Shown here piece after piece: positions 43,331 through 64,000 of a DNA stretch of 64,000 nucleotides. The DNA lies in the NCBI GenBank assembly GCA_044892525.1, contig CM097885.1:215636001-215700000 (forward strand), written 5' to 3'. Every line of letters begins with the position of its first letter. Position 1 is the stretch's first letter. This DNA comes from Schmidtea polychroa. Its lineage: Eukaryota. The notes beneath the pieces are model-generated. The model saw nothing but the letters and a program-made list of their open reading frames with translations, was not told the origin of the DNA and ran no database searches. The position numbers and the translations under genes were made by a program.

Positions 43331-44021
43331 CGATTAACTATAAAGCCGGACGTTTCAAATTCACTTTATGGTGCATTTTATCGATTTCAGTGTAGTATTT
43401 CTCAACATCAATGGTTTCACTGGGATTTAAGAATTTACAATGAAATGCATTAATTGCTTGTTACTAAACAATCCTTGTTTTCATATATAAACATATTGTT
43501 TTCTTTGTGTAAATGTGGTTTAGGAAAATTATTTTTGCGCTTCACCTGCATCAAGTTACTGTGCTGATTGCCCATGATTATAGTTAAGTATCCATTTTTC
43601 ATCGCACTTAACTATTCGATGAAGTAATAGATCATTTTGAGAGCGAAAAACCAGAGAGGAAGAAATTTTAAATCTTTAATATTTCTGATTTTTGTTGAGT
43701 TCAGACGCAACTAATTTTATGAAACCATTTCAACATACACCAAGTTTAGTGGCAACTTCTCAAACCATTATTTCGAGGATTTTGATCCACTAAATGTCGT
43801 TGCTAAAATGTCATCGACTTACCACGGTCGTCATTTTCAATGTTTGTGTTAGCGTCTTTAATATTTCAAAAATATTGAGTCCAAGTTCAAAATAAACATT
43901 AAAAAGTTTTTGTGTGTCAATATTTTACAAATATTTTCAAATACAAATATCGTAAAAATTTTACTTGAGATTATATCACTTTCAAAATTTCGAAAAACCT
44001 ATTTGACGATCTCACAACTAT

Positions 44022-44905
44022 GTGGTCCCAAAGTCGTTGTTGATTTTTGATGCAATGGCTGCACACAAAGAGCCGTCTGTTCACAAACAGATCAATAAGA
44101 CCGGTGCGCACATTGCTGTCATTCCGGGTGGCTTAACATGTAAGCTTCAGCCACTTGACATCGCTGTTAATCATCCATTCAAGTGTTTTGTCCGCAACGA
44201 ATGGGAGAAATGGATGAGTGAAGGAGAACACACATTCACACCATCAGGAAAGCAGAGACGTGCTACGTACATTGAAGTATGCAAATGGGTTCTGGCAGCG
44301 TGGCAGCAAATCAGCACTGAAACTATTCGCAATGGTTTCAAGAAGGCTGGCCTGCTAAGAGTTAGTGAAGCTAATTCAGAGCCAGCAGTAGAGGGCAGCT
44401 TCATTTCGGCCGACAATGTGAACGCTGATACTGACGATGATTATAGTGATGAAGAGTCGATTTATGAAGAGTCCCTTATTTGAAGAAGACAGTGAATATG
44501 ATACGAGTTTCGATGGCTTCACTAACTATAGCGAGGACAGTGACATTAGTGAGACTGGCGATTGATTGCGGCTGTATTGCATGCATTGTAGTCTATACGT
44601 TTCGACACTACTGGTATCGGCAAATTAGTTTAGTTGCTTACCTACTTGTTACATTTGATTACTAGTATATTAAAGATTCTCTGCCGCATCGGTACTATTT
44701 GTTTTCTTGAGGTTTATAATGAGATGTTCATAAAGCTTTCCAATGTACATTTCACAACTACACAGCGAACTATAGGAGGTTTCCGTTATGCTATGTTTAT
44801 GAGTAAAATAAATTTTGTAAACCCCGCACCTTTGTATACCCCGCACTGCTGCCATTCGTTTGGAAAAACTTGTATAACCCGCGGGTTATATGCGCGAAAA
44901 TACGG
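44022..44905 (+). mobile_element. 5'-truncated pogo-family transposon
   Basis: LIFDAMAAH...IPGGLTCKLQPLDIAVNHPFK...WVLAAW...IRNGFKKAG (pogo DDE C-terminus); right TIR ...GCGCGAAAATACGG followed by TA. Confidence 0.88.
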
Positions 44906-45780: not shown

Positions 45781-47780
45781 CTGAAAACAAATACCACAAA
45801 ATCAATCATAAAATAAAAATTTCATTCTCATACATAGTAAAATCGTGAATTCTGAGTTACATCTGACATGTTACGAGAATATTTCGAAAATTTTCTTTTA
45901 GTTAATTTTTCTGCATCTACAAAAAATTACAATAATTTAAAATTTCTTTAAAAATTTTAAAATATAATTTACAGATTCTGAGAAAAATAAGTTTCCTAGT
46001 ATTACTGAATTATTACCGAAAAATTTTAAATATCTTTCATGTTTACATTCCAATCAAAAGAAGAAAAATAAGATCATTAACTAATGTTTTTTCAAAAGAA
46101 TTTATATTGGATGCTTCTTTTCAACATCATTGTAACCGTATTGTCCCAAAAACTTTGTCCCAAATGGATGATTGAATGGCACTTTTTTATATTTATATGA
46201 CGAATAATATAAGTTTAAATTATAAGTGACCAAAATATTAGTTATATTCAATAATTTATCATAACATCAATATTTTAAAGTTTTTTTTTGAAATATTACT
46301 AAAAGAAAGAAGTTTTTGTTGAAGGTTGTGAGTCTTTTTTATTCAATATTTTGCATACCTTATTTTATTTGACAAGATTAATACATATCCCATAAAAATA
46401 GAAAAATGATAAGATAAGAATTTATATTGAAATTTGAAACAAACACTTAATGAAACCAAGTAAAAGAGTACCAATAAGACTTAAATCCATTAAATGAATA
46501 TAGCAGTTTGATTTACTTACATATTTCGTTAAGAATTTCAAACGGCATTTTACTCGGTTTACATTTTTGTGATTTTACAGAATAGATGCAATAATTACTT
46601 ACAGTACTGTATATATTTTACAACAAAAAATTAAAATTCGTGGCTTACCGTGGCTTAAATGTAGAAATATATTTTTTAGAGTAGATATTGCAGGATATAA
46701 AACTGCAAAACTTATATCAAGTGTTTATACTTTGACTGTTATAACTGTTAAATTTCCGAAGAAATTAAAAAAATTGAATATAGGACTATTAATATCATAA
46801 TTTGTCTAAAACAATTTATAGACTAACTTATTGGTTAGAAAAAGTCAATATATAAATTCTAATTTACTAATAGACATTTTTACATAATATTTTTCTTATA
46901 AAGGAATTTGTGGAAACCATTCAAAAATTTAATTGAAAATACTTTTATTTAAAGTGCACTGAAAAGGAAATTTATTCTTAAGCACAAAAGCAATGTAACA
47001 CGCCTACGTGGTTTACATCACATCCAAACATACAAGATAAAATAGTAACTTTTAATATACCTATATTAATTTCTACATATTTTCCATTGAAATTTCAATA
47101 GTGTAAGAAAATTGTGTTTTACTTGATAATATAAAAAACTTAAATAGAAAATTAAAAATATAGTTATAATATTAATCCAAATGAGATAAGCAAACTAAAT
47201 TAAATAGTGGGAAATCGGAAAGAGTTTAGTAAGGATATTTAAATAATATAATTCGTCGGATTAAAGGCTAGCAGATTTATAAATAAATTAATTAACAAAT
47301 AAATAATTGATCCCTTAATTTTTGAAATTATGAATATATATTTTGAGTAAAATGTGTGAATCTTCCTTTATAAATGAAATATTATTTATTATGCAAGAGT
47401 ATTTGTTTATAGTATTTTATAAAACAAAATAAATGAATTTTTTATTAACCTATAACAAGAAATATTAATTTTGTTGATAAAAAACTAATACCACACATAT
47501 TTATGTACCTGTTTTTAATTGATTTGAAATGAAAAGACAAAATCCCGGGGTTGAAAATTTTCGGGATTTTTTGCAAACCCTAATCAATAGTGAGACGGTT
47601 TAAATTTAAAAATAACGACTATCAAACTTTTATAACCTGAACATACAATTGGAATAACAAAGCTATTATAAGTTTATCAGTCAAATCTTTTATTTTGAAC
47701 ATTGATCTTCATTTTTTTTAATGACTAGATCATATCTTTCTAAACATGTTATTTATATTAGTAGGTACAAGTGCGCTGCA

Positions 47781-48077
47781 TGACTCATCGTTGAACAAAG
47801 ACATATGACTCATCGATGACTCATAACAAAGAACATGACTCATACCCCACCCCGGTGAGTCATAAATGACGTCATCAATGACTCATCATACATATGACTC
47901 ATCCTGGTGACTCATCGCGCATGACTCACCCGGGTGACTCATCGCGCATGACTCATCCGGGTGACTCGTCACACATGACTCGTCCTAATGAGTCATCGCG
48001 CATGACTCATCCGGGTGACTCGTCACACATGACTCGTCCTAATGAGTCATCGCGCATGACTCATTAAGGGTGACTCA
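47781..48077. promoter_or_regulatory. Array of about 16 AP-1 consensus sites TGA(C/G)TCA, plus one CRE (TGACGTCA) and four TGACTCG variants
   Basis: Motifs counted directly; partly organised as 54-bp tandem units. Regulatory function is inferred. Confidence 0.65.
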
Positions 48078-48583
48078 TTTCAAATTTAAATTTTAAATTC
48101 AAATTTTAAAAGGGTCAAATGATGTCAAACTTCATGGGTATCATTCGAAAGGTCTTGAAGAGCTCTATCTAATGGTCATACCCTTGAAGGTTTAAGATGT
48201 ATCCTTAACTTTCAAAAGGTCGAACACCTTCAACATTTTAAAAACTATATAATATAGGTATCATTCTAAAGGTAATTCAATATGTTGTTCAATAGTCTAA
48301 ACTACCGCAACGTAATAATATTGTTAACAAATTGAAAGTAATATTAACAAAGACAATGCAGTTTTAATGCAATATTAACAAAGACCCTTCAATCCATGTG
48401 CATAATCAAACAATTACTACTACTACTACTACTGCTCNNNNNNNNNNNNNNNNNNNNNNNNNNNNNNNNNNNNNNNNNNNNNNNNNNNNNNNNNNNNNNN
48501 NNNNNNNNNNNNNNNNNNNNNNNNNNNNNNNNNNNNNNNNNNNNNNNNNNNNNNNNNNNNNNNNNNNNNNNNNNNNNNATTTA

Positions 48584-49090
48584 TTAAACAATAAAATAAT
48601 TTAAAATTAACAATGGTAATCTAAATATTGATGTACTCATATTTGCACCAATATTGTTTGAAATTGGTAACGTTGAATTGTTTTTCAGATATTCTATCGA
48701 TCCTTTGATTGTTTGAATTTCGCTTAATAATAATTCAATCTTTATTAACAAATACACATGCTTATTATGAATAATTTCCATATTCTTTTTATTTTCAACA
48801 ATTGAGTTATTGAAAACTTCAATATGATCAATCAATTTAAATTTTATATTTTGTATATATTCAAATGATAGGTCATGGCTGTTTTCTAAACTCTCCAATC
48901 TTTCGGATATTCTTTTTCCTGGATGCTTTGCCCATTTTGGTTTGTCAATAATATATAAAATATCCATCAACTTGGCGGTATTTGGACAAACACATATTGA
49001 TTTGTTAAAAGACTCCACTGTTATTGTTGTATTGTGTGAGCACACACTCGTTATAATAATAATAATTAGCAATAGAAATATAGTTTTCAT
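48584..49090 (-). CDS. Predicted secreted or GPI-anchored glycoprotein, 168 aa
   Basis: Signal-peptide-like MKTIFLLLIIIIITSVCS, at least 5 N-x-S/T sequons, a helical core and a hydrophobic C-terminus IFRLPLLILNYFIV. TATAAA lies 40 nt upstream. Confidence 0.7.
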   Translation of the reverse strand: MKTIFLLLIIIIITSVCSHNTTITVESFNKSICVCPNTAKLMDILYIIDKPKWAKHPGKRISERLESLENSHDLSFEYIQNIKFKLIDHIEVFNNSIVENKKNMEIIHNKHVYLLIKIELLLSEIQTIKGSIEYLKNNSTLPISNNIGANMSTSIFRLPLLILNYFIV

Positions 49091-49211
49091 GTTGTATCAA
49101 ATCAAAACTCATATATATTTTACATTTATAGTCTATTAACCAATCAGAATCATATTGCACACACTTCTGTAGTAGTATAAATAAAACATCATATTTTAAA
49201 TTACTGTAGAA

Positions 49212-49738
49212 ATGTCGCAACCTAATTTTATCGAAAACTTGTTAAATGAGGTCGTCAATACAGGCATTACGGAAAGCCTCAGTTACCTAATTAATCGTAC
49301 TGAAGAAATCATCAAGGGGAATCATATTGATTACCAAAACATGCTGGATATGGAGTGTCTGGAGACGAAGAAGTTCTACTTCAATAGAATATTCAATTGT
49401 CTATTCGATGACGAAATGAAGTGGACCCGAATAATTGTAGGGTTCACTTATATGAAGATTATAATTGAAAAAAGTTCATGGGACTCACAACACTATTATC
49501 AATGGTCTCAAGAAGTAATACTTTTATAATCTATATTTTAATAATATTGATTTTTTAGATAATCAAATCTAAATTTACTCCATGGATAGAAGCCAATGGC
49601 GGATGGGGTACATTGAAAAAACTCGCCCGAAATGCTAAGGAAATCGATCAGTATAAAAGAAGATTTAAAAACTTTATTAAATTTTCAACAGGTGTCGCTA
49701 TTTTCTATGTAATTTCTAGATTTTTAAATAAAAATTGA
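49212..49738 (+). CDS. Bcl-2-family protein, 160 aa, two exons (49212-49514, 49559-49738)
   Basis: BH1-like FDDEMKWTRIIVGF in exon 1. A 44-nt phase-0 GTAATA...TTTTAG intron leads in frame to BH2 PWIEANGGWG and a C-terminal tail anchor FSTGVAIFYVISRFLNKN. Confidence 0.85.
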
Positions 49739-49817
49739 TATAGTTATGTTGTTTTATTTTTTAAATAAATATATAAGAAATATTAAGAAAGTATAAGAAA
49801 TAATTAACTAAAATTTA

Positions 49818-50177
49818 TTAATTAACACATTCACAATCGTCATCTCCACATTTCATTACATTTTCAACGACATGATCAATACAATCATTCGTAATATTTT
49901 CCGTATCTTTAGGTTCATCTATAGGTTCATATATTTCCTCATCAATTTCTTGAGTATCAGTTTCTTGAGTTTCTTCTTCCTGATCATCAAATCCTGAATC
50001 TTGACTCTCAACTACCCAGCCGATATTTAATGCATTTGTAACAGATAATATGTCCTCAATTTTTACACCAGCTATTTCTGCTAATTTTTCCAACAAAAAG
50101 TTGATTAAAAATTCTAAATAATAACAAATAATTCGGTAATTAATTAATTAATCATGTTAACCTTTTTCCGCAGTCAT
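49818..50177 (-). CDS. Acidic hypothetical protein, 103 aa, two exons (50177-50162, 50113-49818)
   Basis: A 48-nt phase-1 GT-AG intron supplies the ATG (MTAEK|EFLINFLLEK...). Asp/Glu-rich, with a Cys-rich C-terminus. Confidence 0.7.
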
Positions 50178-50362
50178 TTTTATCACTTTAAAACTATATT
50201 GTAAGTTTGTTTATAGATTTTCTTTGTTAAATTTGCATGTCATTTGCATTAATGTTGCAATTTCTTTGTTAATAAAGAGAAAAACAAATATGACTAATAC
50301 ATTTATTAAATACATTAAATAGAACATTAAAATAGCTGTGAAAGTCTAGCAGACATAATTTT

Positions 50363-50740
50363 CTAAATAGGAGAATACACATCATTATTATCAACTTTAT
50401 ATCCCTGGATTGCAATTGTTATATACCAATTTTCGTTTTCTTTGAAACTGATTTCATCAAAAGAATCATAAAATCTTGCATATCTATTGTTGAACCATGC
50501 ATGTTGATTACATGCTAGATTTGAATTTAACCGTTTGAAAACATCATCAATAGTTTTAACATCTATCATTGAAAGCGTGCCGGATAAGAATTGAAATTGA
50601 GTTGGAATTAGCTTGACCGGAGCAACCAATTTCATATTGATTTCTTCTTTTAAAAAATACATTTTGTAGTTGTGGAACATTTGAACCGGTTGTACAAGTT
50701 CTTCTTTCGGTTTTTCGGTGCCTGAAATATTCTTTGTCAT
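50363..50740 (-). CDS. Hypothetical protein, 125 aa (possibly OB-fold/SSB-like; may be truncated by a TAG)
   Basis: ATG-led ORF with TATAAA 41 nt upstream. The frame stays open 11 codons past the TAG (SPI*KIMSARLSQLF). The fold assignment is speculative. Confidence 0.55.
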   Translation of the reverse strand: MTKNISGTEKPKEELVQPVQMFHNYKMYFLKEEINMKLVAPVKLIPTQFQFLSGTLSMIDVKTIDDVFKRLNSNLACNQHAWFNNRYARFYDSFDEISFKENENWYITIAIQGYKVDNNDVYSPI

Positions 50741-51183
50741 CGTGAATAATGATTAAAATGAAATGGTACAGGGTTTTTATACCTTCGAATCGTGTCTATC
50801 ATCCAATCAGATTTCAATATGTCTTTGTTTAAATTGCATTCAAAATGCATTGATGTTGCATTGTCACATGTTTTGTTATATGTTCTATTTACAGATTTAT
50901 TATTTATGTGTTTTATTATTAATGTTTTTTTACTATTAATGTTTTAATTATTACATGTTTTGTTATANNNNNNNNNNNNNNNNNNNNNNNNNNNNNNNNN
51001 NNNNNNNNNNNNNNNNNNNNNNNNNNNNNNNNNNNNNNNNNNNNNNNNNNNNNNNNNNNNNNNNNNNNNNNNNNNNNNNNNNNNNNNNNNNNNNNNNNNN
51101 NNNNNNNNNNNNNNNNNNNNNNNNNNNNNNNNNNNNNNNNNNNNNNTAACAAAAACTAAATAACATTTATTTGTTGAAAACAT

Positions 51184-51598
51184 TTAATGCACAAAGTTCT
51201 TGATATAGTGGAAATCACGAAGAGTTTTAACCAAAACCCATTCTACATATCGCTGATATCTAGCTTTGCAGCAGGAACAGCTATTGTAACATAAATATTC
51301 TGGATCCATATGTTTAATTGTTCGATTTATCTTCACATCCCACATAAATTGATGGAAAATCTCGAACATCCATATCCCCGTCGCATTGAACACCAAATCG
51401 GGGATTAATTCTGCAGGCTTGTTGTATACTGCTGCATTGATTTCTGGATAATAGAATGCTAACTTCTTTAGCATGACTGCAGCATATTCTTCTGAAAAAT
51501 ATAATATTTAAATTTGTAAACAAAAAATAAAAAAAGAAAAATTTACCATAATCATCTATTTCTTTAATTAAACGAGCTGCACTTGGAATTTTGTACAT
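51184..51598 (-). CDS. Hypothetical Cys-containing protein, 119 aa, two exons (51598-51547, 51491-51184)
   Basis: A 55-nt GTAAAT...TTTCAG intron joins ORFs 51314..51598 and 51184..51474 in frame (IDDY|EEYAAVMLKK); contains a CYNSCSCC cluster. Confidence 0.75.
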
Positions 51599-51659
51599 TT
51601 TTTTTTGAATAAATGATTTCTAAACAATAAACAGTTTGTTTAAAACAATCATTAACCAA

Positions 51660-52097
51660 TTAGAAATCGACCAATAAAAATATCTCATTCCGAACATTGT
51701 TAACAAATTCCATATACTCCAAATTTCTCACCCCAAGCATGACAACCTTTCCACTAGCAAACACATTGACACATATAGGGTTATATTTTAATAGTCTTAG
51801 TGCCGGAAACAATTCCGGTTCAAACATACAATCACATTTTCTCGACATGTTATATAGATTGATACTATGTCCCATATCCATAGTGACGGTAATTGATTGG
51901 ATTTTTATATTATTGATTCGATATTGTAGTTTATTAATATCCAAGGGTTCCTTACATCCCATGATTCTGCATTTGCCAGTCTTGAAAAATATTATTGGAT
52001 ATTTCCCGCTTCTATCGACAATTTGCTGTGGTTTTCCTGATGGAAACCTCATTTTCGAAACATCTAAATCTCCTCGATAATTTATATTTGCTAACAT
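51660..52097 (-). CDS. Compact TATA-box-binding-protein-like protein, 145 aa
   Basis: Two TBP-like repeats: IIFFKTGKCRIMGCK, and IKIQSITVTMDMGHSINL...FEPELFPAL...VNVFASGKVVMLGVR (compare TBP YEPELFPGL and IFVSGKVVLTGAK). Confidence 0.85.
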   Translation of the reverse strand: MLANINYRGDLDVSKMRFPSGKPQQIVDRSGKYPIIFFKTGKCRIMGCKEPLDINKLQYRINNIKIQSITVTMDMGHSINLYNMSRKCDCMFEPELFPALRLLKYNPICVNVFASGKVVMLGVRNLEYMEFVNNVRNEIFLLVDF

Positions 52098-52204
52098 TAT
52101 TAATTCATTTATGAAAATTTCTCTTTATATACAATTTTAGCACGAGTTCATTAAATCACCGAATATAAACAAATATATGTATATATATATTTATAAAATT
52201 TGAA

Positions 52205-52828
52205 ATGGAATTAAGAAATGATGCAGTATACCAAATCGTTGGTCCGAGTGGTAGCGGGAAAACACTGTTTGTTTGTAAATTATTACAATCAAAATTATTT
52301 AAGTCAAAATTTAATAAAATTTATTGGCATAGGGGAGCAGATGATGAAAGCGGAATGACACAAGATCAGTTTTGTAAAATCAAAATGACAATCATAAAAG
52401 GTTTCGATAAAAACTGGTCATCTAGATTACGACAGGGTGATGTGATTATTATTGATGATTTGTATCAAGAAGCAAATAAAGAAAAGGATTTTAATAATTT
52501 ATTTACAAAAATTAGTAGACATAAAGGTGTCACTGTAATTTTTATCACTCAAAATCTTTTTCATCAAGGTGGATCTCATCGAACTCGTAATTTGAATGTT
52601 CAATATTTAGTTATTTTCAAGAACCCTAGAGATGCAACAGTGATTGATTTTCTTGCACGTCAAGCATACCCTAACAATCGAAATTTCTTAATGAATGCAT
52701 TTGCCGATGCAACAAAATCCCCACATGGATATATTTTTCTAGATTTTACACAACAATGTCTTGATGAATTACGAGTAAGAACAGATATATTTAACAAGGA
52801 AGGAGCTATAGTATATAAACAAAGTTAA
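52205..52828 (+). CDS. A32/FtsK-like genome-packaging ATPase, 207 aa
   Basis: Walker A GPSGSGKT, Walker B VIIIDD, SRH arginine motif and FITQN. Confidence 0.93.
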   Translation: MELRNDAVYQIVGPSGSGKTLFVCKLLQSKLFKSKFNKIYWHRGADDESGMTQDQFCKIKMTIIKGFDKNWSSRLRQGDVIIIDDLYQEANKEKDFNNLFTKISRHKGVTVIFITQNLFHQGGSHRTRNLNVQYLVIFKNPRDATVIDFLARQAYPNNRNFLMNAFADATKSPHGYIFLDFTQQCLDELRVRTDIFNKEGAIVYKQS

Positions 52829-52849
52829 AACCAAAATAAATTATCAATC

Positions 52850-53344
52850 ATGTTACTAAAAACTCGTGTAAAGACAACAAAAAGGAAACCTAAAAAATTG
52901 TCTAAAAAAGTTAAGATTCCACCAAAAACTAGTTTCACACCATCGAAAAAATTGCTTATTGATAATATTCCACCGAGTAATCGTATTCCACCGAGTAATC
53001 ATACTAATCGTAATAATTCTCATCGTAGTTTTCCGTTTTTCATTGCATTACTTAAGGCTCCCAGTATGAGAAGAATGAATATTTTGCAGTCTTTTCCAAA
53101 CTATGTTATTGATTATTTACTTGATATTTTAATTAAAGTTGTTAAAGGTAAATTCCGTATAAGTACATCAAATAAAACGATTTTGAACAGGCACAAGAAA
53201 CCATTATTATCACTAGTAAATACAAAAAATAAAAAACGTATGCGTAAAATCATATATAAACAACAAGGAGGTTTCATTGCAGCCTTGATACCAATAGCAT
53301 TATCTTTATTAGGAGGTGCAGGGTTATTAGGGAGATCATCATAA
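52850..53344 (+). CDS. Basic virion core / pX-like protein, 164 aa
   Basis: Lys/Arg-rich N-terminus; QQGG-F protease-site-like motif before a hydrophobic C-terminal helix IAALIPIALSLLGG; typical Polinton position next to the ATPase. Confidence 0.7.
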   Translation: MLLKTRVKTTKRKPKKLSKKVKIPPKTSFTPSKKLLIDNIPPSNRIPPSNHTNRNNSHRSFPFFIALLKAPSMRRMNILQSFPNYVIDYLLDILIKVVKGKFRISTSNKTILNRHKKPLLSLVNTKNKKRMRKIIYKQQGGFIAALIPIALSLLGGAGLLGRSS

Positions 53345-53399
53345 ACAATGGGCCAATCATTACCAAATCTTAATTTGAATTTTAAGTCTTCCTGTTGTA

Positions 53400-53787
53400 A
53401 TGGAGAAAATTTGGACGAACCCGGAAGACGAAGCAGGTTTCGGTGGAGTGGCAAAATTAAAGAAAAGAGTTCCGAATTCGAAAAAAGAAACCCAGAAGTG
53501 GTTATCAGATCAACTCGCGTACAGTTTGAACAAACCAATGCAGAAAATATTTCCAACAAGAGCGTATAAAACATATGGAATAAATGATTTATGGCAAATG
53601 GATTTGATGGAGATGATACCTTATTCAAAAATTAACAAAGGGTATAAATATATTTTAACATGTATTGATGTATTCAGCAGGTTTGCACGAGCAATACCAG
53701 TCAAGGCAAAATCTTCAGATGAAATGTCCAAAGCTATTAATATTTTATTTAAAAATGGACATCCTAATAATTTACAAACGGATTTAG

Positions 53788-53830
<43 letters not shown>

Positions 53831-54470
53831 GATTATTATTATTTTAGGTAAAGAATTCTACAACAGTAAAGTTAAGCAAATCCTCGATAAACTGAAAATA
53901 AATCACTATTCGGTACATTCTCAATACAAAGCTGCTCATGTTGAAAGATTTAACAGAACCTTGAGAGAGAGATTAACGAAATTGTTCGTGTATCAAGGTA
54001 ATAAGAAATGGGTATTGGTTTTACCAAAAATTATAACCAGTTATAATAATTCATCACATCGAGGACTTAATGGATTGAGACCAGTTGATGTAAAATCTAA
54101 AATATTTGCTCAACAAGATGTAACAAAAACCAAACCGAAATATAAAGTGGGTGATCATGTTAGAATTAGTAAAATTAGTGCATCACCATTTATTAAAAAT
54201 TTTGATACAAATTGGAGTGATGAAGTCTTTGTAATTTCGAAAATAAATACTAGCCAGAACCCCGTAATGTATGTCATCAAAGATTCTGATAATGACATTG
54301 TACAAGGGAAATTTTATGAGCAAGAATTACAAGTCATTCCTCCCCCAAAAGTATTTAGAATTCAAAAAATATTGAAAACTAAAATGGTAGGTAAGGATAA
54401 ACAATACTATGTCAAATGGCATGGATATAAAAACCCATCATGGATATCGTCTCGAGACCTCGTAAAATGA
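53400..54470 (+). CDS. Retroviral-type DDE integrase with C-terminal chromodomain-like region, 336 aa after removing intron 53788-53847
   Basis: WQMDL, IDVFSRF, LQTDLG|KEFYN and VERFNRTL, plus QYYVKWHGY. The poly-Ile insert in the ORF track is a 60-nt GT-AG intron. Confidence 0.93.
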
Positions 54471-55489
54471 ATTTTTATATTATTTTGCCGAGCAATAGTT
54501 GTCCGAATATACATCCAGAAAACACTGCCAGTAAATTTATGGTCAATTTCCAAAATCCGATTTATTTAAATGGTGAGTGGGAAGTGGCTCTCCTCGACTT
54601 TACATTTGTGTACAATCTCTTTCCAATTTATAGTAAAGCTAAAATTGAATATAAAAAGAAAGAGACGCAAAGAAATATCTCTTTTACCATTGATAATGTA
54701 GAAGATCGAATTGATATATCTAATCCATCAGATTCAATTGTCAAAATGTATATTGATCGTCAATATTTAATAGTTGAATGTAAATATCATCCCTTTACTA
54801 TAAAATTTGATAGTTTAGCAATGGCAAAACGATTGGAATTAACAAGTCAGAGTAATAGAAATCATACTAATATATTCCAAGTACTACGGCCGGGATTTAC
54901 CAAAGTAGCAGCGCGATTTGAAACAATTTCAATGAAAGTTGAGTTTGAAGGTGAAACTGAAAATACATATACGTTTAATGAGAATTTATATATATCTAAA
55001 TTGGAGGAATTACAGTCATATTTAATTCAAAATTGTGGATCAATATTTAAATCATTGGAATTAGTAGACAATACTTTGTTCAAATTCAGTTTGAATACTG
55101 ATATTACTGAAATCACTTTTGATAAAAATCTAATAAAAACATTAGGATTACCAAAAGAAACATATAGTCAAGATGGAAAATTAAATGTAGGTATGAATAA
55201 ACCGAAAATAATTAAACTTCATCATCAAATGTTCATCTATACTAATATTATTGAACCCATAATTGTTGGTGATTCCGCTGTTCCTCTATTGAAATCTATT
55301 TGGGTTGAGAAAAATGAACAAGATGATGTTGTACAAATCAATGTAGAAAATCCCATGTATTTGCATGTTTCAACATCATGTATAAACAATATAGAAATAA
55401 ATATAAGAGATGATTCTGGTCAATTAATCGAATTTGCAAAAGATTCAAAAACTCATTTGACACTACATTTTCGTAAAGTAGATGGCTAA
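54467..55489 (+). CDS. Minor capsid protein (penton-like), about 340 aa
   Basis: N-terminal FYIILPSNS...WEVAL and C-terminal IYTNIIEPIIVGD...PLL...INNIEINIRDDSG...LHFR match the Polinton minor capsid. The start at 54467 overlaps the integrase stop (ATGA). Confidence 0.88.
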   Translation: MNFYIILPSNSCPNIHPENTASKFMVNFQNPIYLNGEWEVALLDFTFVYNLFPIYSKAKIEYKKKETQRNISFTIDNVEDRIDISNPSDSIVKMYIDRQYLIVECKYHPFTIKFDSLAMAKRLELTSQSNRNHTNIFQVLRPGFTKVAARFETISMKVEFEGETENTYTFNENLYISKLEELQSYLIQNCGSIFKSLELVDNTLFKFSLNTDITEITFDKNLIKTLGLPKETYSQDGKLNVGMNKPKIIKLHHQMFIYTNIIEPIIVGDSAVPLLKSIWVEKNEQDDVVQINVENPMYLHVSTSCINNIEINIRDDSGQLIEFAKDSKTHLTLHFRKVDG

Positions 55490-55886
55490 TTCCGATATTA
55501 TTAGTATGTATAGTGGTAGCCAAAGTGGTGGCGAATTACCATATTTTATTGGTAAACAGTACGGAAGTGGGTGGTTGAGAACAATTGGTAGATTTGCGTT
55601 ACCAATTCTGAAACGTATTGGTAATTTCGGCATGAAAACTGCAAAAGATGTAATTATGAATGACAAGAAAATATTACCATCGTTAAAATCAAATGCAATT
55701 GCTGAAATAAGTAAAGTATTACCTGGTATGTTTAATAATAATAAAACTGAACCAGCACCGATACCAGTTGGACCTAAACGTAAATTTGAAAGTGAAATTA
55801 AAACAAGTATGGGAACTAAACGCAAGAGAGGGAGAAGGCATATAAACAAACGAATGAAAGGACACGGAACCATATTTGAAGAATGA
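55482..55886 (+). CDS. pVII-like core protein, 134 aa
   Basis: QSGG and QYGSG glycine motifs, an amphipathic helix and a basic C-terminus; lies immediately before the major capsid gene. Confidence 0.75.
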   Translation: MANSDIISMYSGSQSGGELPYFIGKQYGSGWLRTIGRFALPILKRIGNFGMKTAKDVIMNDKKILPSLKSNAIAEISKVLPGMFNNNKTEPAPIPVGPKRKFESEIKTSMGTKRKRGRRHINKRMKGHGTIFEE

Positions 55887-57109
55887 TTTGCGGTAAATCT
55901 GAATTATGTATATTTGATCGACCATCGCCTCAGGCGGTTATTGAATATGGAGCATTTGAAGATATATTTCCAATGAATTCTATTACCGATAGTAGAAATG
56001 ATGTGGAATTTTACATTAATGGTTCTCAACCAGAATATTTAGATTTGAACGATACTTTGTTGTATGTTCAAATAAAAGTTGTAGATAAAGACAATAAACC
56101 ATTAGCTGCAGATGATGCAACTGAACCTAATAATTTCTTATTTCATACTCTCTTTAAAGATGTTATTCTTGGATTTAATAATATTAAAATTGAGGGTGGA
56201 AACAATACATATGCTCACAAGGCGATTATCGAAACTATTTTAAATTATAATAATGATACTAAAGATACTTGTCTAACTCCAATGGGATATGGTGTATCTG
56301 ATGATCGAAAAAAGTGGATTAAAGGTTCAAAAGCTTTCAACATGTGTTCATCTCTACAATTGGATTTTATGGATCAACCCAAGTATTTACTACCAGGTGT
56401 TAATGTGCATATGAGATTGAAAAGATCTGACTCTGCATTGTCATTATCAACTGGAGTTGCAGGTGCAGCACCTAAATTAATATTACTCGATGCTAAATTA
56501 ATGGTTCGAAGAGTTCGATGTGAATCATCTGTATTAGCTGGACATCAAATTGGATTAAATACAAAACATGCAATTTATCCGATAAAGACAAAGGAAATTG
56601 TATCCTTTGCAATTGCTAAAGGAGCATCATCTTTTTACAAGGAGCAAATATTTGGAGATCGAAGAATGCCTAATTTCATCCTTGTAACGTTTCAAAGTGA
56701 AGCTCAATATAATGGATCTTATGATACATCTTCATCAAAATTCAAACATTTTAGTATAACTTCTCTATCATTATCGAAAAATACTGATTATCGAGAAACT
56801 TATACTCAAGATTTTGATAATGATAATTATTGTACATCATATATGCAAAGTCTTGTCAGAAATTTAGGATATTTAGATAAAAATCTTAATTGTGGTATAA
56901 GTTTGGAAGAATTCAAATCATTCTATCCATTTTTTACATTTGTTCTTGCTCCAGATTTTGATTTAAATCAAAGTCAATTACCTCAAAGTGGAAATTTAAG
57001 ATTGGACATCAAGTTTGGTAAAGCAATTACTGAACCAGTCCATGTAATAATCTATGGAGTTTTTGAAAATGAAATCCAAATTACTACAAATCGAACTGTA
57101 TTAGTATAA
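55883..57109 (+). CDS. Major capsid protein (double jelly-roll, hexon-like), 408 aa
   Basis: CGKSELCIF...VEFYING...YLDLNDTLLYVQIKV N-terminus and ...GNLRLDIKF...VIIYGVFEN C-terminus, characteristic of Polinton/adintovirus MCPs. Confidence 0.9.
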   Translation: MICGKSELCIFDRPSPQAVIEYGAFEDIFPMNSITDSRNDVEFYINGSQPEYLDLNDTLLYVQIKVVDKDNKPLAADDATEPNNFLFHTLFKDVILGFNNIKIEGGNNTYAHKAIIETILNYNNDTKDTCLTPMGYGVSDDRKKWIKGSKAFNMCSSLQLDFMDQPKYLLPGVNVHMRLKRSDSALSLSTGVAGAAPKLILLDAKLMVRRVRCESSVLAGHQIGLNTKHAIYPIKTKEIVSFAIAKGASSFYKEQIFGDRRMPNFILVTFQSEAQYNGSYDTSSSKFKHFSITSLSLSKNTDYRETYTQDFDNDNYCTSYMQSLVRNLGYLDKNLNCGISLEEFKSFYPFFTFVLAPDFDLNQSQLPQSGNLRLDIKFGKAITEPVHVIIYGVFENEIQITTNRTVLV

Positions 57110-57144
57110 ATGAACAAAAATAATAATTAAAGTATTTTATTTTT

Positions 57145-57529
57145 ATGGAGTAAGATTTTTATTTTATAATTTTATTTATTTATTAGTTCTATTCAGGTGT
57201 TTCGAATTGGTACTCAATTATTGGGAAACCAATTTCTTGGAGTTTATCCACTGAATAAAATCCCTTATTTAGATGTTAATCAAGCAATTATTGTCAATAC
57301 TCATACATCTAGTTTAGGAGGTGAACATTGGATTGCTGTTTACAATAAACCAAACCGAGTATATGCATTCGATCCCTTTGGATATTATTACCCAAATTTA
57401 TTAATTAGTAAATTGCAAACTATTGGTAAACCTATTGTATATAATCGAACTCGATATCAACATCCATTTTCAATTACTTGTGGCCAGCATTGTCTTGCAT
57501 GGTTGTTATCAATGTATAATTTTGTTTAA
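57145..57529 (+). CDS. Adenain-like cysteine (maturation) protease, 115 aa, two exons (57145-57149, 57187-57529)
   Basis: GEHW, FDPFG, YQ and TCGQHC catalytic motifs. The ORF has no ATG unless the 37-nt GTAAGA...TTAG intron is removed, which gives MDSIQVFRIG. Confidence 0.85.
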
Positions 57530-57915
57530 TATATATTATTGTAAAAATGTCGTCTTATTAATGAACAATTTTGATAATTAAATTTATTTTAATTTATTAT
57601 TATTATTTTATAAATATTCTTATTATTATTATTTGCAATTAATGTGCAAGTTATTTACAATGACTAGTCATGTTTTACCTTTTTGAAATAGTCACGTAGT
57701 GTCTTTGTTAAACGACAAAGACATCTCATTATTCATGCACATGGCGAGTAGTTGATATACATACCTACACGGTGAGTGCGTAAATGATACACAGTAGTAT
57801 GTATGTGTGTTGTATATATTCCTCGATTCTGATTGGATCGTGAATAAAGTTTGTAATAAACGTGATATATATTCTATGTTTTTCATTTTTTCGTCACTTT
57901 TAGACAAAACTTACA

Positions 57916-58507
57916 ATGAAGAACATTTCAAAAGATATCAAAAGAATGATACAAAGAAACCGAATTGGTAAATTTTGTTTTTTATAATATGTTAATTTAT
58001 AATATATTTTAGCAGATATGAATATTCGTATATCAGCACCTAATCATCCTAAAATTGAAAGCAACAAGAAAAATGGTAAATATTTAAAATATTAAAATAA
58101 TATGTTATGAAATTATTCAGGAACAACTGTAACAATAAATGAATATGACGCAGCTACTCGAAACGAGATGTTGAATGTTGACATCGATGGTAATATTTAT
58201 ATTTATTAATAATTAATTTAATTAATTAATTTAAAAAACAGATGAAATTTATGAAAATATTCAAAAAGAATTTCAAGAACCGAAAAATGTCGGAGAAAAT
58301 GAAAATATATCAAAAAATAATGAAATTATTGAAAACATTCAAAATGAATTTGAAGAAAATATTTTTGATGAAAATGTATCAAAAAATAATGAAATTATTT
58401 ACGATGAAAGATACAATGGAAAACAAAAATGTAAGATTTGATTTATTTATAAAATATTTATTTAAAGTATTTATTCATAAATTTGCTTTTAAGATTATAA
58501 GACTTGA
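57916..58507 (+). CDS. Multi-exon acidic hypothetical protein, about 128 aa (exons 57916-57967, 58013-58075, 58121-58189, 58242-58430, 58494-58507)
   Basis: Successive phase-1 GT-AG introns of 45, 45, 52 and 63 nt keep one frame open. The last intron is optional, since a stop follows 3 codons later if it is retained. Confidence 0.72.
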
Positions 58508-58649
58508 TTGACAATTATAATAAAAAAAAAATAATAATTATTTTTTTGTTAAAAAATAAATGATTTTACTTTTTATTCAATTTCATTTTTATATTTTTAT
58601 TAAAAATTTTTAATAAAAGTTAGTAATATTATTACTATTATTACTATTT

Positions 58650-58691
<42 letters not shown>

Positions 58692-59167
58692 TTATATTTT
58701 TTTTTGCTTAGTTTTATTTAGGATGATTTTATATTATAACTAATATTATAACTAAAAAGGGATTTTTTATCTAAAATATATTTTATTATTAAATGGTGAA
58801 TATAATATATTGAATTTTAGGAGATCATGAATAAATATGTATGATAATAATATTAGTTTAAATAATAATATTAATAATAATAATAATAATTATCATTATT
58901 ATTATTATTTATATTTTAGCTTAGTTTTTATTTAAGTTGATGTTATACATCCTACAATTAATTGTTTTTGATAATATTTGTTTTAAATTAAATATAGCTT
59001 TTTAAGATATGTAATTATTTATTTAAGATATATATATTTTAGAAATATTTTACGATTAAATATATGATATTAGAAATCGTAAAATATTATAACGAAAAAG
59101 ATATTTTATATCGAAAATATATTTTATTGTTAAATGGTAAATATAATATATTGAATTTTAGGAGAAC

Positions 59168-59186
59168 ATGAATAAATATGATGATG

Positions 59187-59239
<53 letters not shown>

Positions 59240-59494
59240 TTAAATTTTAGCTTAGTTTTTTATTTAGGTCGATTTTATACATCCTACTGTAATAATACTT
59301 TTCATAATAACTGTCATTGTCTTATGGAAAAGTATTATTCGCATAAATATAATGGTATCATCTACCAGATATGTCCTACATGCAAAACATTAGACACAAA
59401 AACATATTTCGAATTTTACAAAAAACATTGCAATCATTTAAGACAATTTACAGGTTCGAAAAAAGATTTATTCATCATATTAGTAGGTAGTTAG
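59168..59494 (+). CDS. Hypothetical Cys/His-rich protein with an (AAT)n insert; last of about 3 tandem decaying copies
   Basis: C-x4-H-x2-CHC, CPTC and CNH pattern. Flanking blocks (GAATTTTAGGAGA.CATGAATAAATATG; CTTAGTTTT) repeat at about 58700-58840. Confidence 0.4.
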
Positions 59495-59589
59495 TGGCTT
59501 ACGGCAACAATTACCCCCCCCGGGGGGGGGTTGTTGCAACTTTTTTTTGTTGCCGTAATTTTTTTGTTGCAACTTTTGATTACGCAATT

Positions 59590-60060
59590 TTTCACACTAT
59601 AGTGAGGGGGTCTCGATGGTCCTGGGATTTTCAATACAAAAAAAATTTTTCTATACAAAAATCCGACTACCACTAAAAAAGCATGGAATTTTCAGACTAT
59701 AGTGAGGGGGTCTCGATGGTCCTGGGATTTTCAATACAAATAAAATTTTTTCTATACAAAAACGATGGTCCTGGGATTTTCAATACAAATAAAATTTTTT
59801 CAATACAAAAAGGCGGTCTCACTAAAAAAGCATGGAATTTTCAGACTATAGTGAGGGGGTCTCGATGGTCCTGGGATTTTCAATACAAAAATATTTTTTC
59901 AATACAAAAAGGCGGTCTTCAATAAAAAAGCATGGTAATTTAAGGTCTCAGGATATTTTCAATACAAATAGGCGGTCTACACTAAAAAAGCCAAGGATTT
60001 TTCAGACTATAGTGAGGTGAGTCTCCTTGGACCTGAGAAAAAGGTGGTCTACACTAAAAA
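59590..60060. repeat. Imperfect tandem repeats containing CTATAGTGAGGGGGTCTCGATGGTCCTGGGATTTTCAATACAAA
   Basis: Three full copies plus partial ones, preceded by a GCAACAA-C8/G9-TTGTTGC hairpin at 59504-59537. Confidence 0.88.
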
Positions 60061-60065
60061 CGTGG

Positions 60066-60540
60066 TAAATTTTTCAATTAAAGTAAATAATGGTCCAAAT
60101 TTTAAAATTAAAGTAAATTATGGTTCTAAAAATTAAATTAAAGTAAATTATGGTCCTAAAAATTAAATTAAAGTAAATTAAGGTCCTAAAAATTAAATTA
60201 CAGTAAATAATGGTTCTAAAAAATTAAATTACAGTAAATAATGGTTCTAAAAAATTAAATTACAGTAAATTATGGTCCAAATTTTTCTATTACAGTTAAT
60301 TATGGTCCTAAAAAATTAAATTAAAGTAAATTATGGCTCAAATTTTTCAATTACAGTAAATAATGGTCCTAAAAAATTAAATTACAGTAAATTATGGTCT
60401 AAATTTTTAAATTAAAGTAAATTATGGTCCTAAAAATTAAATTAAAGTAAATTATGGTCCTAAAAAATTAAATTACAGTAAATTATGGCTCAAATTTTTC
60501 AATTAAAGTAAATAATGGTCTAAATTTAAAATTAAGTAAT
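60066..60540. repeat. About 30-bp AT-rich minisatellite (AAATTAAAGTAAATTATGGTCCTAAA), about 15 copies
   Basis: Read directly. Confidence 0.9.
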
Positions 60541-60802
60541 CAATGGTAAAAAATTTTAAATAAGTAAATTAAAGTATTAATTTTTAAATTAAGTAATCAA
60601 TGGTAAAAAATTTTAAATAAGTAAATTAAAGTAATGTAATAAGTAAATTAAAGTAAGATTTTTAAATTTATTAACAAAAAGTTGAAGGTGTTTGAGAATT
60701 GAAATTTTTTAATGGAAATTTTTATGAAATATTTTTTAAGTAATTTTTAATGGAAATTTTTATGAAATAATTTTTCAAAGTCAAATGAAAATTTTAACGA
60801 AA

Positions 60803-60833
<31 letters not shown>

Positions 60834-60930
60834 AATAAAAATAATATATCAACCAAATACATAAAAATGAACTAGACACATAAAACACAAACAATTAACA
60901 AATGTAAAGATATAAAATTTATTCAATAAA

Positions 60931-63900
60931 TTAGTCCTCATCGGACAAAATAACGTCATCGATATCGATGTCATCTTCTTCATTAAATTCTTCCTCATCT
61001 TCTCCATCATTTTCTCCATCATTTTCTGAAACATCTTCTCCATCATTTTCTGAAACATTTTCTGCGACAATTTCTCCAACATTTTCTCCAATATTTAATT
61101 CACTTAATCTTACATGCCCATATGCAAGACTAGCGTTTTTCCCCACCCAAACCCTTTTGTCATCTTTGTTTGTTAGTGCTATTTTTGTGTTTTTAATTGT
61201 AAAAATTTGATGATTTTTGCTTGTTATTTTAGTCTGAGGAACCGAAAAAATCTGGTTAGTGTTATAACAATCCAGGTATGACTGATGTTTTATGTCACTA
61301 CCTTTCAATGTTACACCTTTAGCCTTTTTTGTTTCCTCATCACCCAACAAGCTATAACATTTAGGTCTAAGAAAAACCCACTCCTTATATTTAAGACCTT
61401 TATTCTCGTCTTTGAACTTTCCAATGACTGAATCAAGGTTCTTACTATATAAGGAATGACAACTATTGTAATTGGAAGTATCTAATAAATTATCTCGAAT
61501 CATTGCAGGTAAAAGAACCTCAAGTTTGCAGTTAATGACTTCGAGGAAAAAAGAATCTGTATCACCTGCAACGATATTAATTTTACAATTAAACTCATTG
61601 CGAAATGATTCCAGATCCTTATATTGCAATTCATACATTCTAAGTTTAGATAGATCAAGTACAGATTGACCAATGTAACTCGGTCTATCTAAACATATAG
61701 AATCTGAATTCAATAGTGTTGCAATTAAATTATCAGCTATTTTAATAGATTTTTTAAAAGTCGGTTTTGACGAATATTTAACTAATTTACCTGCAGTTGT
61801 ACAAAGACGAAGATTCATTCTTCTCTTTAAATTTTCAACTGTTTTGCCGTATAAACTGTTATTTAGCAATTTATAATAATTTTTATCTAAGTTATTTACG
61901 CTTTTTGATCTTAATTCGGTATTTGTATCTATATATTTTTTAAAAATTGGTGATTGCTTAAATCTTACACCTCTATTTACACGTGTTACTTTAACACCAA
62001 GTTCTAAATATAATTTTAATAATCTCCAATGAATAACATAATTAGATTTTGGAAGATGAGTTAATAATAATTTTTCAACCTTAGACCCAGCAGGTTTCAT
62101 TTTTTCAGCAGCTACAGGGAAATCATCCAACTTATCATGAAGCTCAGAAGGAATTACAAGATCAACTTCAAGTGTGTATCCATAAGACAAAGATTCAAGA
62201 TTTAAATTCCTACATTCATCCATTATTTTATCAAATCCATTAAGAACCCAACAAAATTCTCCACAAGGTAATGATTGACTTAAAGCCCACCCATAAAGAT
62301 TATTAATATCTATATAAAGTAACTCGGTGTTCTCGTCGGTATTTACGTAATGCTTATTCACAAAAGTAAGACCGCCTCTTATTCCACCCTCATAAAAGCT
62401 AAACATTTCGTTTTCAGTTATGAGTTCAATTGGTTCATTTAAAGACATTAATGCAGAAGACCACGACATGCCTGGAATTCCGAAATAATTCAAAGGCTCT
62501 AATCTATTGTGAGCAATTGATTTCAACCTAAACTGATGAAAGAAATCAGCCAAAAGAAAACAATCAAGTTTTAGGTAGATCATCATATAATCTAATAAAG
62601 TTCTGCAATTAGATTCTACCCAAATCTCCTGAGCTTTTTCATACTCAAGCTCAGTGACACCCTCCCAGATTGGTGGTAATTCATACGTAGTTTGTAGAAC
62701 ATCTAAAGAAGTGGCGAAATTATAAGGGAAGATTCCTTTTTCACATACTATGGTGCCAGAAAAAGCAGAATTAGTAAAAGGCAAAGAATTCAAAGTTTTG
62801 ACTGCTTTAGCCAAAGAATCATTGACAAATTGATATGAATCAATGAATCTTAGGCTAATTTTGCCTAAATGAGCAATCAAAGATATAAATTTTTCCGTAG
62901 TTATTGGGATGCACCCTAAATTCCAATTTTTAAATTTATTTAATCCATATTTAAGTATATGATGCATATCGTATCCCTTCAAGTTGTGAAATACGATGGG
63001 CAAAATTTTATTTATTTTTCTATTTACGTTACATGTGCTACAAGCTGCACCCAAGTATTTGCCCGTAAAATGATCGTGATCTCTAACAGGATCCACGATA
63101 GATTTCAAACAAAGATAACAAACCGTTGAATTAATGAATTGTTGTTGCTCATTTTTAGTTAATTTAATCATTGGTTTCCTACCCATTTTATAATAAAAAG
63201 GAAGAACCTTATTTAATGCTATATCCTCTATAGCACTTAAAAAACTCTCGACGCAATCTAAACCTATGAACTGCTGATAAGATTTAGATCCGTCAAAGTT
63301 ATTTACTAGTAAAAGACCAGCAGATATTGGCATGTGTCGCTGAAAATGATCATTATCACAAGGTAAAATAGCCTCAAAATCGGCATAAACTACGAAAGGA
63401 GGAGTTACTGTTTTCGACCAGTCAGTAAACTGTAAGAATTTATTTTGAGGGAAAGTATAAAGAGTAGTTCCTAATTGCTTGCGTTTGCATAATATTTCAT
63501 GTTTTTCTAGTGCGTTTCTATTGTTAAAACCATTCAAACAACGATGACACCATATTGATCGTATGCGTGTAGGACAACTAGTGTTTATGCTGCAATTCAG
63601 TAACCTATTTAAATTGCTTATAGCAATGTAATGGAAATTGTTCCCTTTATTTAATAAAAGTAAATTAATTACTGTTCCATTTAAAACTTTTGAACGATGT
63701 ATAATGTCTAAATGGGGGTGTTTTAAAACGTAATTATCTATTAATTGTTTGTTATGGTCATAAGTAAAAACATTAATTATTAAACCAGGATTTTTGGCCT
63801 CGAATTTTCTAATATCTTTTAATTTCATTGGTAAGTCTAATGGATTATATATTAACTCAGATAAATTATAACTGGATGTTCTATTTCTATATTGGCTAAT

Positions 63901-64000
63901 AACCTCATCATATTTTAAAATAGCTAAAATGCTATATAAAAAACATGAATCGTCGGTGTTTTTTACATTAATTAAACAATATTTATTTTTTAGACAAGTA
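60931..64000 (-). CDS. Protein-primed family B DNA polymerase (5' end outside the window, more than 1020 aa)
   Basis: Exo I YADFE, Exo II HNLKGYD, Exo III YLKLD, Pol A DINNLY, Pol B KLLNNSLYGK and Pol C GDTDS. The frame is open from 63999 to the stop at 60931, so the ORF-track start at 63828 is internal. Confidence 0.96.
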   Translation of the reverse strand, partial: TCLKNKYCLINVKNTDDSCFLYSILAILKYDEVISQYRNRTSSYNLSELIYNPLDLPMKLKDIRKFEAKNPGLIINVFTYDHNKQLIDNYVLKHPHLDIIHRSKVLNGTVINLLLLNKGNNFHYIAISNLNRLLNCSINTSCPTRIRSIWCHRCLNGFNNRNALEKHEILCKRKQLGTTLYTFPQNKFLQFTDWSKTVTPPFVVYADFEAILPCDNDHFQRHMPISAGLLLVNNFDGSKSYQQFIGLDCVESFLSAIEDIALNKVLPFYYKMGRKPMIKLTKNEQQQFINSTVCYLCLKSIVDPVRDHDHFTGKYLGAACSTCNVNRKINKILPIVFHNLKGYDMHHILKYGLNKFKNWNLGCIPITTEKFISLIAHLGKISLRFIDSYQFVNDSLAKAVKTLNSLPFTNSAFSGTIVCEKGIFPYNFATSLDVLQTTYELPPIWEGVTELEYEKAQEIWVESNCRTLLDYMMIYLKLDCFLLADFFHQFRLKSIAHNRLEPLNYFGIPGMSWSSALMSLNEPIELITENEMFSFYEGGIRGGLTFVNKHYVNTDENTELLYIDINNLYGWALSQSLPCGEFCWVLNGFDKIMDECRNLNLESLSYGYTLEVDLVIPSELHDKLDDFPVAAEKMKPAGSKVEKLLLTHLPKSNYVIHWRLLKLYLELGVKVTRVNRGVRFKQSPIFKKYIDTNTELRSKSVNNLDKNYYKLLNNSLYGKTVENLKRRMNLRLCTTAGKLVKYSSKPTFKKSIKIADNLIATLLNSDSICLDRPSYIGQSVLDLSKLRMYELQYKDLESFRNEFNCKINIVAGDTDSFFLEVINCKLEVLLPAMIRDNLLDTSNYNSCHSLYSKNLDSVIGKFKDENKGLKYKEWVFLRPKCYSLLGDEETKKAKGVTLKGSDIKHQSYLDCYNTNQIFSVPQTKITSKNHQIFTIKNTKIALTNKDDKRVWVGKNASLAYGHVRLSELNIGENVGEIVAENVSENDGEDVSENDGENDGEDEEEFNEEDDIDIDDVILSDED

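Follow-up and report, generated by a model that had tools for sequence, protein, structure and literature searches.

The animal Polintons or Mavericks described to date share terminal repeats, a 6-bp target-site duplication, a protein-primed DNA polymerase B (pPolB), an RVE integrase, a packaging ATPase, an adenain-type protease and a double-jelly-roll capsid, as far as the accessible text of the reports goes (PMC8097293; PMC8502044; bioRxiv 10.1101/2022.07.12.499685). In the accessible parts of these and other studies the core genes appear without introns: in vertebrate Mavericks intronless core open reading frames (ORFs) are described and used as a trait to call copies intact (PMC8097293), in nematode Mavericks introns are confined to the cargo genes (bioRxiv 10.1101/2022.07.12.499685), and prokaryotic gene callers have been used because endogenous viruses “do not contain introns” (PMC10120064). 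Bcl-2 homologues have been reported in adintoviruses (PMC8502044), and the account of piRNA silencing of planarian Polintons leaves introns unmentioned in its accessible part (PMC8532177). Here we describe two nested Polintons, A and B, in a window of 64,000 nucleotides (nt; the whole stretch of DNA that was analysed) of the genome of Schmidtea polychroa (GenBank assembly GCA_044892525.1, contig CM097885.1, positions 215,636,001 to 215,700,000, forward strand). All the hallmarks listed above are present, with terminal repeats that are inverted and a double-jelly-roll major capsid protein (MCP). However, the integrase, the protease and probably the pPolB carry inserts that are, on sequence comparison, very likely host-type introns, so that the core ORFs depart from the intronless state that is a trait of “intact” Mavericks (PMC8097293), although not part of the definition of the family. 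The ends of the elements also read AGTAGG instead of the (AGT)2 or (AG)3 of vertebrate elements, and a TBP-like protein is encoded, unlike in the published animal Polintons, within the accessible text of those reports. The short inserts (37–60 nt, AT-rich, GT-AG) are likewise unlike the self-splicing group I introns of 309–376 nt given for cryptophyte Polinton-like viruses in the accessible text of PMC12220804. A literature search, which excluded Repbase entries, subscription papers and supplements, found no report of inherited spliceosomal introns in Polinton core genes. A and B are related Polintons, one nested in the other, and we consider it probable that the inserts of the integrase, the protease and probably the polymerase are ordinary introns, removed constitutively by the host spliceosome from separate nuclear mRNAs.

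The strongest result concerns the protease gene of A, where a single intron position appears to have been kept while the sequence turned over.

57145..57529, plus strand: adenain-type cysteine protease gene (Pfam Peptidase_C5, E 6.7e-8), with a predicted phase-2 intron at 57150-57186 (37 nt) inside codon 2

The protease frame at 57187 has no start codon; an ATG and two bases lie 37 nt upstream, followed by GTAAGA, and the unspliced frame stops at codon 3. An alignment of the MCP gave 70 metagenomic loci, of which 33 had the protease start and enough flank. Fifteen of these show an ATG, two bases, GT(A/G)A, 37–47 nt and an AG in register, a pattern that shuffling would yield in 0.106 loci. Another 16 start with a direct in-frame ATG; no locus has both arrangements and two have neither. 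The 15 insert-bearing loci represent about 11 distinct lineages, with a protease identity of 41–57%, and the same pattern occurs in 20 of 21 genomic loci. In a quick MCP tree of 40 rows, from which 12 near-identical genomic rows, two duplicate metagenomic rows, matches of fewer than 300 residues and rows without intron status had been left out, the rows with the intron all group in a single clade of 23 rows with a support of 100 (Shimodaira-Hasegawa-like approximate likelihood ratio test, SH-aLRT), and the outer rows are all intronless or without a determined status. One intronless member, locus L068, lies inside the intron-bearing clade; the intron is also missing from locus L115, and both are relatives of similar capsid identity. 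Several database proteases resemble intron read-through by eye. Scans of IMG/VR found no relative.

The second core gene with an insert is the integrase.

53400..54470, plus strand: RVE integrase gene with chromodomain (Pfam rve, E 1e-7), with a predicted phase-1 intron at 53788-53847 (60 nt, an ATT repeat)

The insert splits the Gly codon of QTDLG-KEF. We fetched 26 of the 32 other matches to the A family, which together with the window make 27 A copies. All 27 carry the insert, always as GT..AG, at lengths of 30–168 nt, and in 12 of them the length is not a multiple of three. It could be argued that such inserts are not spliced at all, and that they arose from expanding microsatellites and AT-rich indels as the copies, mobilised in trans by intronless masters, decayed. 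The ATT repeat of the A integrase, which is in frame in the window, and the existence of intronless integrase sites in the genome (17 of 23 matches in a short-spacer search) fit this explanation, as does the lack of an RNA junction discussed below. However, whereas 7 of the 15 in-frame copies have both integrase exons open, 11 of the 12 frameshifting ones do, the reverse of what decay predicts. Furthermore, B has at the same base an unrelated insert of 42 nt with an in-frame stop, and locus L137 has a third type, of 40 nt, at the same site; decay would hardly place unrelated GT-AG inserts at a single base in four families, nor an insert at one codon of the protease in 15 metagenomic loci, none of which also has a direct ATG. 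The intronless sites, moreover, belong to other families, the main one being only ca. 73–80% identical to A and B. We therefore regard decay as a very unlikely explanation. A pattern search of the genome found 448 integrase sites with an insert of 23–53 nt, and none in the reversed control; at least four sequence types occur among the 100 sites listed. All 120 listed protein homologues read xDxG-xEF without a gap. Since split genes fall mostly outside a protein search, these ungapped homologues show that the insert is not protein, and not that introns are rare. Among the top 60 matches in the protein databases none was more than 80% identical to a fetched intron-bearing genomic copy, i.e., no spliced integrase product was found there.

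The integrase insert is absent from all 13 metagenomic relatives that show the site. Of the 17 intronless genomic sites, eight form one family, 90–100% alike, which has retained the protease intron and which the MCP tree places within the intron-bearing families (supports 100 and 92). None of the full-length flanks of the intronless sites closely matched A or B; scores of 100 for single flanks of loci L179, L181 and L184 were taken as artefacts of short end-free alignments. The simplest reading of this distribution would be one gain and one precise loss of the integrase intron, although gene swapping between families could give the same pattern. At six further integrase sites of the genome the inserts have shrunk to 18–21 nt, probably too short to splice.

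C1:114483857, C1:187228189, C2:89961269, C3:136683958, C3:136743198 and C4:58215331: integrase sites with an insert of 18–21 nt

Another possible origin of the inserts is that host introners, i.e., intron-generating transposons, inserted them copy by copy after integration. Short direct repeats indeed border the integrase intron (TTAG-GTA on either side in A, GATTTAG-GTAA in B), and there is a precedent in the Maverick-Polinton-like proviruses of dinoflagellates, full-length virus-like elements that likewise contain intron-type inserts, most of them judged, in the accessible text of the report, to have been acquired after integration from active host introners (PMC11957031). In S. polychroa, by contrast, the positions are common to whole families and to metagenomic relatives, which means that the introns predate the present insertions. 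The eight short introns of A do not resemble one sequence family by eye, no genome-wide search for introners having been made. Such an origin thus has very little probability.

Outside the core genes, short inserts occur in three accessory genes of A.

49212..49738, plus strand: Bcl-2-like gene in two exons, with a predicted phase-0 intron at 49515-49558 (44 nt)
49818..50177, minus strand: acidic protein gene, with a predicted phase-1 intron at 50114-50161 (48 nt) after codon 5 and an immediate stop if unspliced
51184..51598, minus strand: 51.2-kb gene, with a predicted phase-1 intron at 51492-51546 (55 nt)

The Bcl-2 insert was found in 23 of the 27 A copies examined, at lengths of 35–74 nt that cover all three phases and with two different sequences; exon 1 is open in 22 copies and exon 2 in 23, and anchored extraction gave GT..AG in 19 out of 19. 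When copy L025 is read across the insert, the Pfam Bcl-2 score is 33.1 bits over positions 6–100 (cut-off 31.4), against 21.4 for exon 1 alone. Three protein-database matches of the Bcl-2-like protein end in intron read-through, and a sequence search of the PDB gave no match for it. The insert of the acidic gene is GT..AG in 24 of the 25 copies extracted and varies little in length (41–48 nt). For the 51.2-kb gene, subfamilies that are ca. 57% identical have different inserts of 55, 41 and ca. 49 nt at one site.

The initial annotation placed a further intron-bearing gene at 57.9 kb, which is probably the spliced leader of the polymerase of A, as judged from the reading frames of the copies.

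57916..58430, plus strand: four exons (57916-57967, 58013-58075, 58121-58189 and 58242-58430), the probable 5' leader of the polymerase of A
57968-58012 (45 nt), 58076-58120 (45 nt) and 58190-58241 (52 nt), plus strand: GT-AG inserts of the leader, all phase 1
58431..59267, plus strand: predicted phase-1 intron of 837 nt from the leader to the main polymerase exon
59268..59481, plus strand: start of the main polymerase exon of A, cut by B; the gene continues beyond B

The four exons run in frame to 59268 across the 837-nt intron, in phase 1 throughout. The view that the 57.9-kb ORF is surely a separate gene was set aside. The donor of the long intron (Lys-x-Lys or Asn-Asp-Lys, then T-GT) and its acceptor (AG-GT) occur in 25 of the 27 A copies and in 4 of the 5 copies of B, and the intron measures 315–1251 nt. 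In the polymerase frame of the main A subfamily, no Met precedes the Cys/His motif. Adenovirus, a related nuclear virus with linear DNA, takes the N-terminus of its polymerase from a short upstream exon; it does not integrate, and it relies on long alternative splicing of polycistronic units, whereas the predicted introns described here are mostly of host size and lie within single genes. The long intron contains, at 58600-59260, degenerate repeats of the acceptor region and AAT runs, and the last of these repeats offers an in-frame ATG before a poly-Asn run. Further candidate introns were seen by eye in the polymerase of metagenomic locus L062.

Altogether A has eight short GT-AG inserts (44, 48, 55, 60, 37, 45, 45 and 52 nt). 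The host's own intron sizes were obtained by aligning ten myosin loci against each other, which gave 30 predicted introns in eight loci: 20 measure 41–58 nt and the other ten 216–3234 nt. The viral inserts match the short class of host introns, apart from the 37-nt protease insert, which lies just below it. Seven of the nine predicted introns of A are in phase 1, and most lie near the 5' ends of the genes. Their interiors vary freely between families. The flanks of the integrase, protease and Bcl-2 inserts match uninterrupted homologues whatever the length or sequence of the insert; for the acidic gene and the leader this match is weaker. At least six genes with GT-AG introns of 37–63 nt had been proposed, and inserts were indeed found at all the claimed sites, although their range is 37–60 nt and the sixth “gene” is the probable polymerase leader.

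Several observations weigh against spliced introns. The length of the integrase insert is divisible by three in 15 of the 27 A copies, including the window, whose frame reads through it, and that of the acidic gene in 24 of the 25 copies. The protease insert, at 37 nt, falls below the shortest of the 20 short host introns found. The conserved insert ends among young copies are weak evidence by themselves, some copies may be duplicates, and trees of the integrase do not resolve a single gain. For the polymerase, the donor motifs had been picked by eye, just 3 of 27 copies yielded the three small leader introns, and in B and in the A subfamily of the window an in-frame ATG just before the main exon makes an unspliced start possible. 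Finally, contigs of three sequencing runs guessed to be RNA and of one run of unknown kind, compared with 51150-57100, gave no spliced read or contig for any predicted junction; five of the eight short introns lie outside this interval or were not bridged, and the contigs did not reach the junctions of Bcl-2, the acidic gene, the protease and the leader. The 15 contig joints listed, out of a larger number, all came from the run of unknown kind, and reads were cut at the integrase repeat, so that this comparison speaks neither for nor against splicing. As no RNA junction was obtained, splicing is something that we infer; the presence of host-sized spliceosomal introns, as first proposed, is nevertheless strongly supported by the comparison of copies, families and metagenomic relatives, if not by RNA. 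A contig of run X7, guessed to be RNA, has a loose poly-T end at 51152. On the minus strand this end lies ca. 15–20 nt beyond an AATAAA, which hints weakly that a related subfamily makes a polyadenylated 51.2-kb transcript.

How would such genes be expressed? Host RNA polymerase II would transcribe each gene, most of the late-type genes from their own TATAAA(C/T) box ca. 40 nt upstream; a TATAAA(C/T)A box indeed lies 36–42 nt before the starts of the Bcl-2, acidic, ATPase, 52.8-kb and MCP genes. The host U2 spliceosome would then remove the inserts constitutively. Left unspliced, the protease message would end at its codon-3 stop. The integrase of B and of the 12 frameshifted A copies would be truncated just after its QTD motif; otherwise its catalytic core would contain a poly-Ile insert. 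The introns likely arose step by step and were passed on with the virus lineage: that of the protease early, at the base of a wide clade, that of the integrase later, in the clade of this genome, at an AG-GT site between short direct repeats, and both would later have been lost precisely in some branches. They would tie the elements to the host nucleus without a regulated switch being required.

The initial annotation went further and suggested that splicing gates the integrase and the protease. In that case the introns would be real and their retention controlled, so that integrase, protease and polymerase would be made only in some cells or stages, whereas the capsid needs no splicing. The three enzymes do have introns, unlike the capsid, core and ATPase genes, and that of the protease persists across a clade in which MCP identity falls to 44%. 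Retention would be a hard off-switch, since a stop follows at codon 3 of the protease frame in the intron-bearing rows listed. However, a phase-2 intron that starts with GTAA or GTGA produces the stop at codon 3 automatically. The integrase intron is lacking not only in the metagenomic relatives but also in the sister family of eight fetched copies that the MCP places among intron-bearing families, and L068 and L115 do without that of the protease. Introns also occur in genes with and without a TATAAA box (that before the protease was read by eye), and insert interiors that differ so freely between families do not favour control. No positive evidence for gating was thus obtained, and regulated retention, to which anatomy is the sole pointer, is possible if rather improbable. 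The capsid, core and ATPase genes are perhaps intronless because high output selects against introns.

The window lies on the largest of the four large contigs of the host genome (781 Mb, AT-rich), and the ends of both elements were located with the next 20 kb of this contig added to it.

47754..47759, no strand: 6-bp target-site duplication of A, TATATT, repeated at the right end of A, 18,858 bases past the window
47760..48437, plus strand: left terminal inverted repeat of A, starting AGTAGG, ca. 680 bp, 93–97% like the right repeat
59476..59481, no strand: 6-bp target-site duplication of B, CATATT, on both sides of B
59482..64000, minus strand: end of nested B, a terminal repeat with tandem arrays followed by the polymerase
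60931..64000, minus strand: protein-primed PolB of B, 3' part of a 1374-codon frame (Pfam DNA_pol_B_2, E 1.4e-31)

Element A extends from 47760 to beyond the window and B, on the opposite strand, starts at 59482, measures 16,646 bp and has its far terminus 12,127 bases past the window end. The termini match exactly over 30 nt in A and 39 nt in B. The insertion of B lies within the polymerase gene of A, whose frame covers 59268-59481 and resumes beyond B as a frame of 1321 codons, the homology being established by copies; in the uninterrupted A copy L003 the polymerase frame is continuous over 1395 codons. The PolB visible in the window consequently belongs to B, and this copy of A is interrupted. 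A single element with a head-on PolB is ruled out by the two pairs of terminal repeats and the two target-site duplications. The locus had been described as one near-intact Polinton with all its genes open and perhaps still able to make particles, which does not hold for the copy of A in the window: its polymerase is broken by B, and its 50.4-kb gene stops early.

50363..50740, minus strand: conserved 50.4-kb gene, which in the window copy stops 12 codons early

All 24 other copies in which the end was found stop 12 codons later, and an Atlas search with the 50.4-kb protein gave only matches below 0.9. A small gene of B resembling it (L001:1190-1619, plus strand) runs antisense within the polymerase intron, predicted at 1251 nt, and contains a 40-nt GT..AG insert of its own.

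Besides its polymerase, B encodes an ATPase, an integrase, two minor-capsid-like genes, an MCP, a protease and a TBP-like gene. The proteins of A and B are 67–85% identical, and their exons differ mainly at third codon positions (0.53–0.60 vs. 0.72–0.94). Both are abundant: for A, 33 full or nearly full integrase matches were found among the 40 candidates scored, and for B all 150 scored MCP matches are 99–100% identical and the best 40 integrase matches ca. 100% identical. The terminal repeats of both elements are made of tandem arrays (47790-48070 and 59590-60660), and that of A has many TGA(C/G)TCA-type palindromes. Between the polymerase and the right repeat of A lies a frame of 273 codons (L002:6920-7741, plus strand), which we take to resemble an IS630/Tc1-type transposase.

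A Pfam scan over 19 frames recovered Bcl-2 (weak), TBP, Pox_A32, RVE with chromodomain, Peptidase_C5 and DNA_pol_B_2. The other genes of A are as follows.

48584..49090, minus strand: intronless ORF with a hydrophobic N-terminus, no Pfam match over the cut-off
51660..52097, minus strand: intronless TBP-like gene (Pfam TBP, E 1.6e-15)
52205..52828, plus strand: intronless packaging ATPase gene (Pfam Pox_A32, E 1.3e-6)
52850..53344, plus strand: intronless gene for a basic protein
53348..53569, plus strand: small Met-Gly...Cys-Cys ORF overlapping the integrase start in another frame
54467..55489, plus strand: intronless gene for a probable minor capsid protein, from its size and position, no Pfam match
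55482..55886, plus strand: intronless gene for a small basic, putatively core-like protein
55883..57109, plus strand: intronless MCP gene, double jelly roll (structure model and Foldseek)

The model of the MCP (408 residues), built on an alignment of 58 rows, has a mean predicted local distance difference test score (pLDDT) of 87.4, and Foldseek matched it to the capsids of iridovirus, PBCV-1 and mavirus (E 2e-16 to 5e-14). That the ATPase, capsid and PolB genes are intronless, as was stated initially, stands for the ATPase, minor capsid, core-like and MCP frames and not for PolB, which probably has a spliced leader. The overlapping stop and start codons from the integrase through the MCP were confirmed; translational coupling as their meaning was rejected, most of these genes having a TATAAA box of their own. 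A homologue of the TBP-like gene is found in B at L001:9328-9843, and several metagenomic relatives encode one too. The Met-Gly ORF holds an (S)LP...SSCCN motif, with a similar start in loci L061, L071, L077, L078, L081, L131, L137 and L138, and its counterpart in B is either out of frame or has a 35-nt GT..AG insert; its product could be a lipid-modified virion protein. Elsewhere in the window, decayed frames resembling long-terminal-repeat retrotransposons and hAT elements (by eye) and a fragment of a DDE_1 transposase (Pfam) occur at 11236-14107, 22902-25236, 36490-39047 and 44007-44483, and exons of a RhoGAP-like host gene lie near 17033-17416 (by eye).

Surveys that use intronless core genes to call genes or to label copies as intact, as in the accessible text of PMC8097293 and PMC10120064, would misread such elements. 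A young family with hundreds of copies and a stop-bearing integrase insert would be taken for dead, and intron-blind gene calling would give the protease and the polymerase false N-termini. The predicted junctions, in turn, make the expression of a repetitive element directly measurable, and the gain and precise loss of introns across many families would offer a compact system for studying intron birth. That a whole clade within the animal Polintons consists of spliced nuclear viruses, with integration, virion maturation and DNA replication each behind an intron, the capsid proteins free of one and the splicing state of the host deciding when an element copies, matures and inserts, seems unlikely to us. 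Inherited introns would place the transcription of this lineage in the host nucleus. They would thus bear on whether animal Polintons act as autonomous viruses of the nucleus or rely on giant viruses of the cytoplasm.

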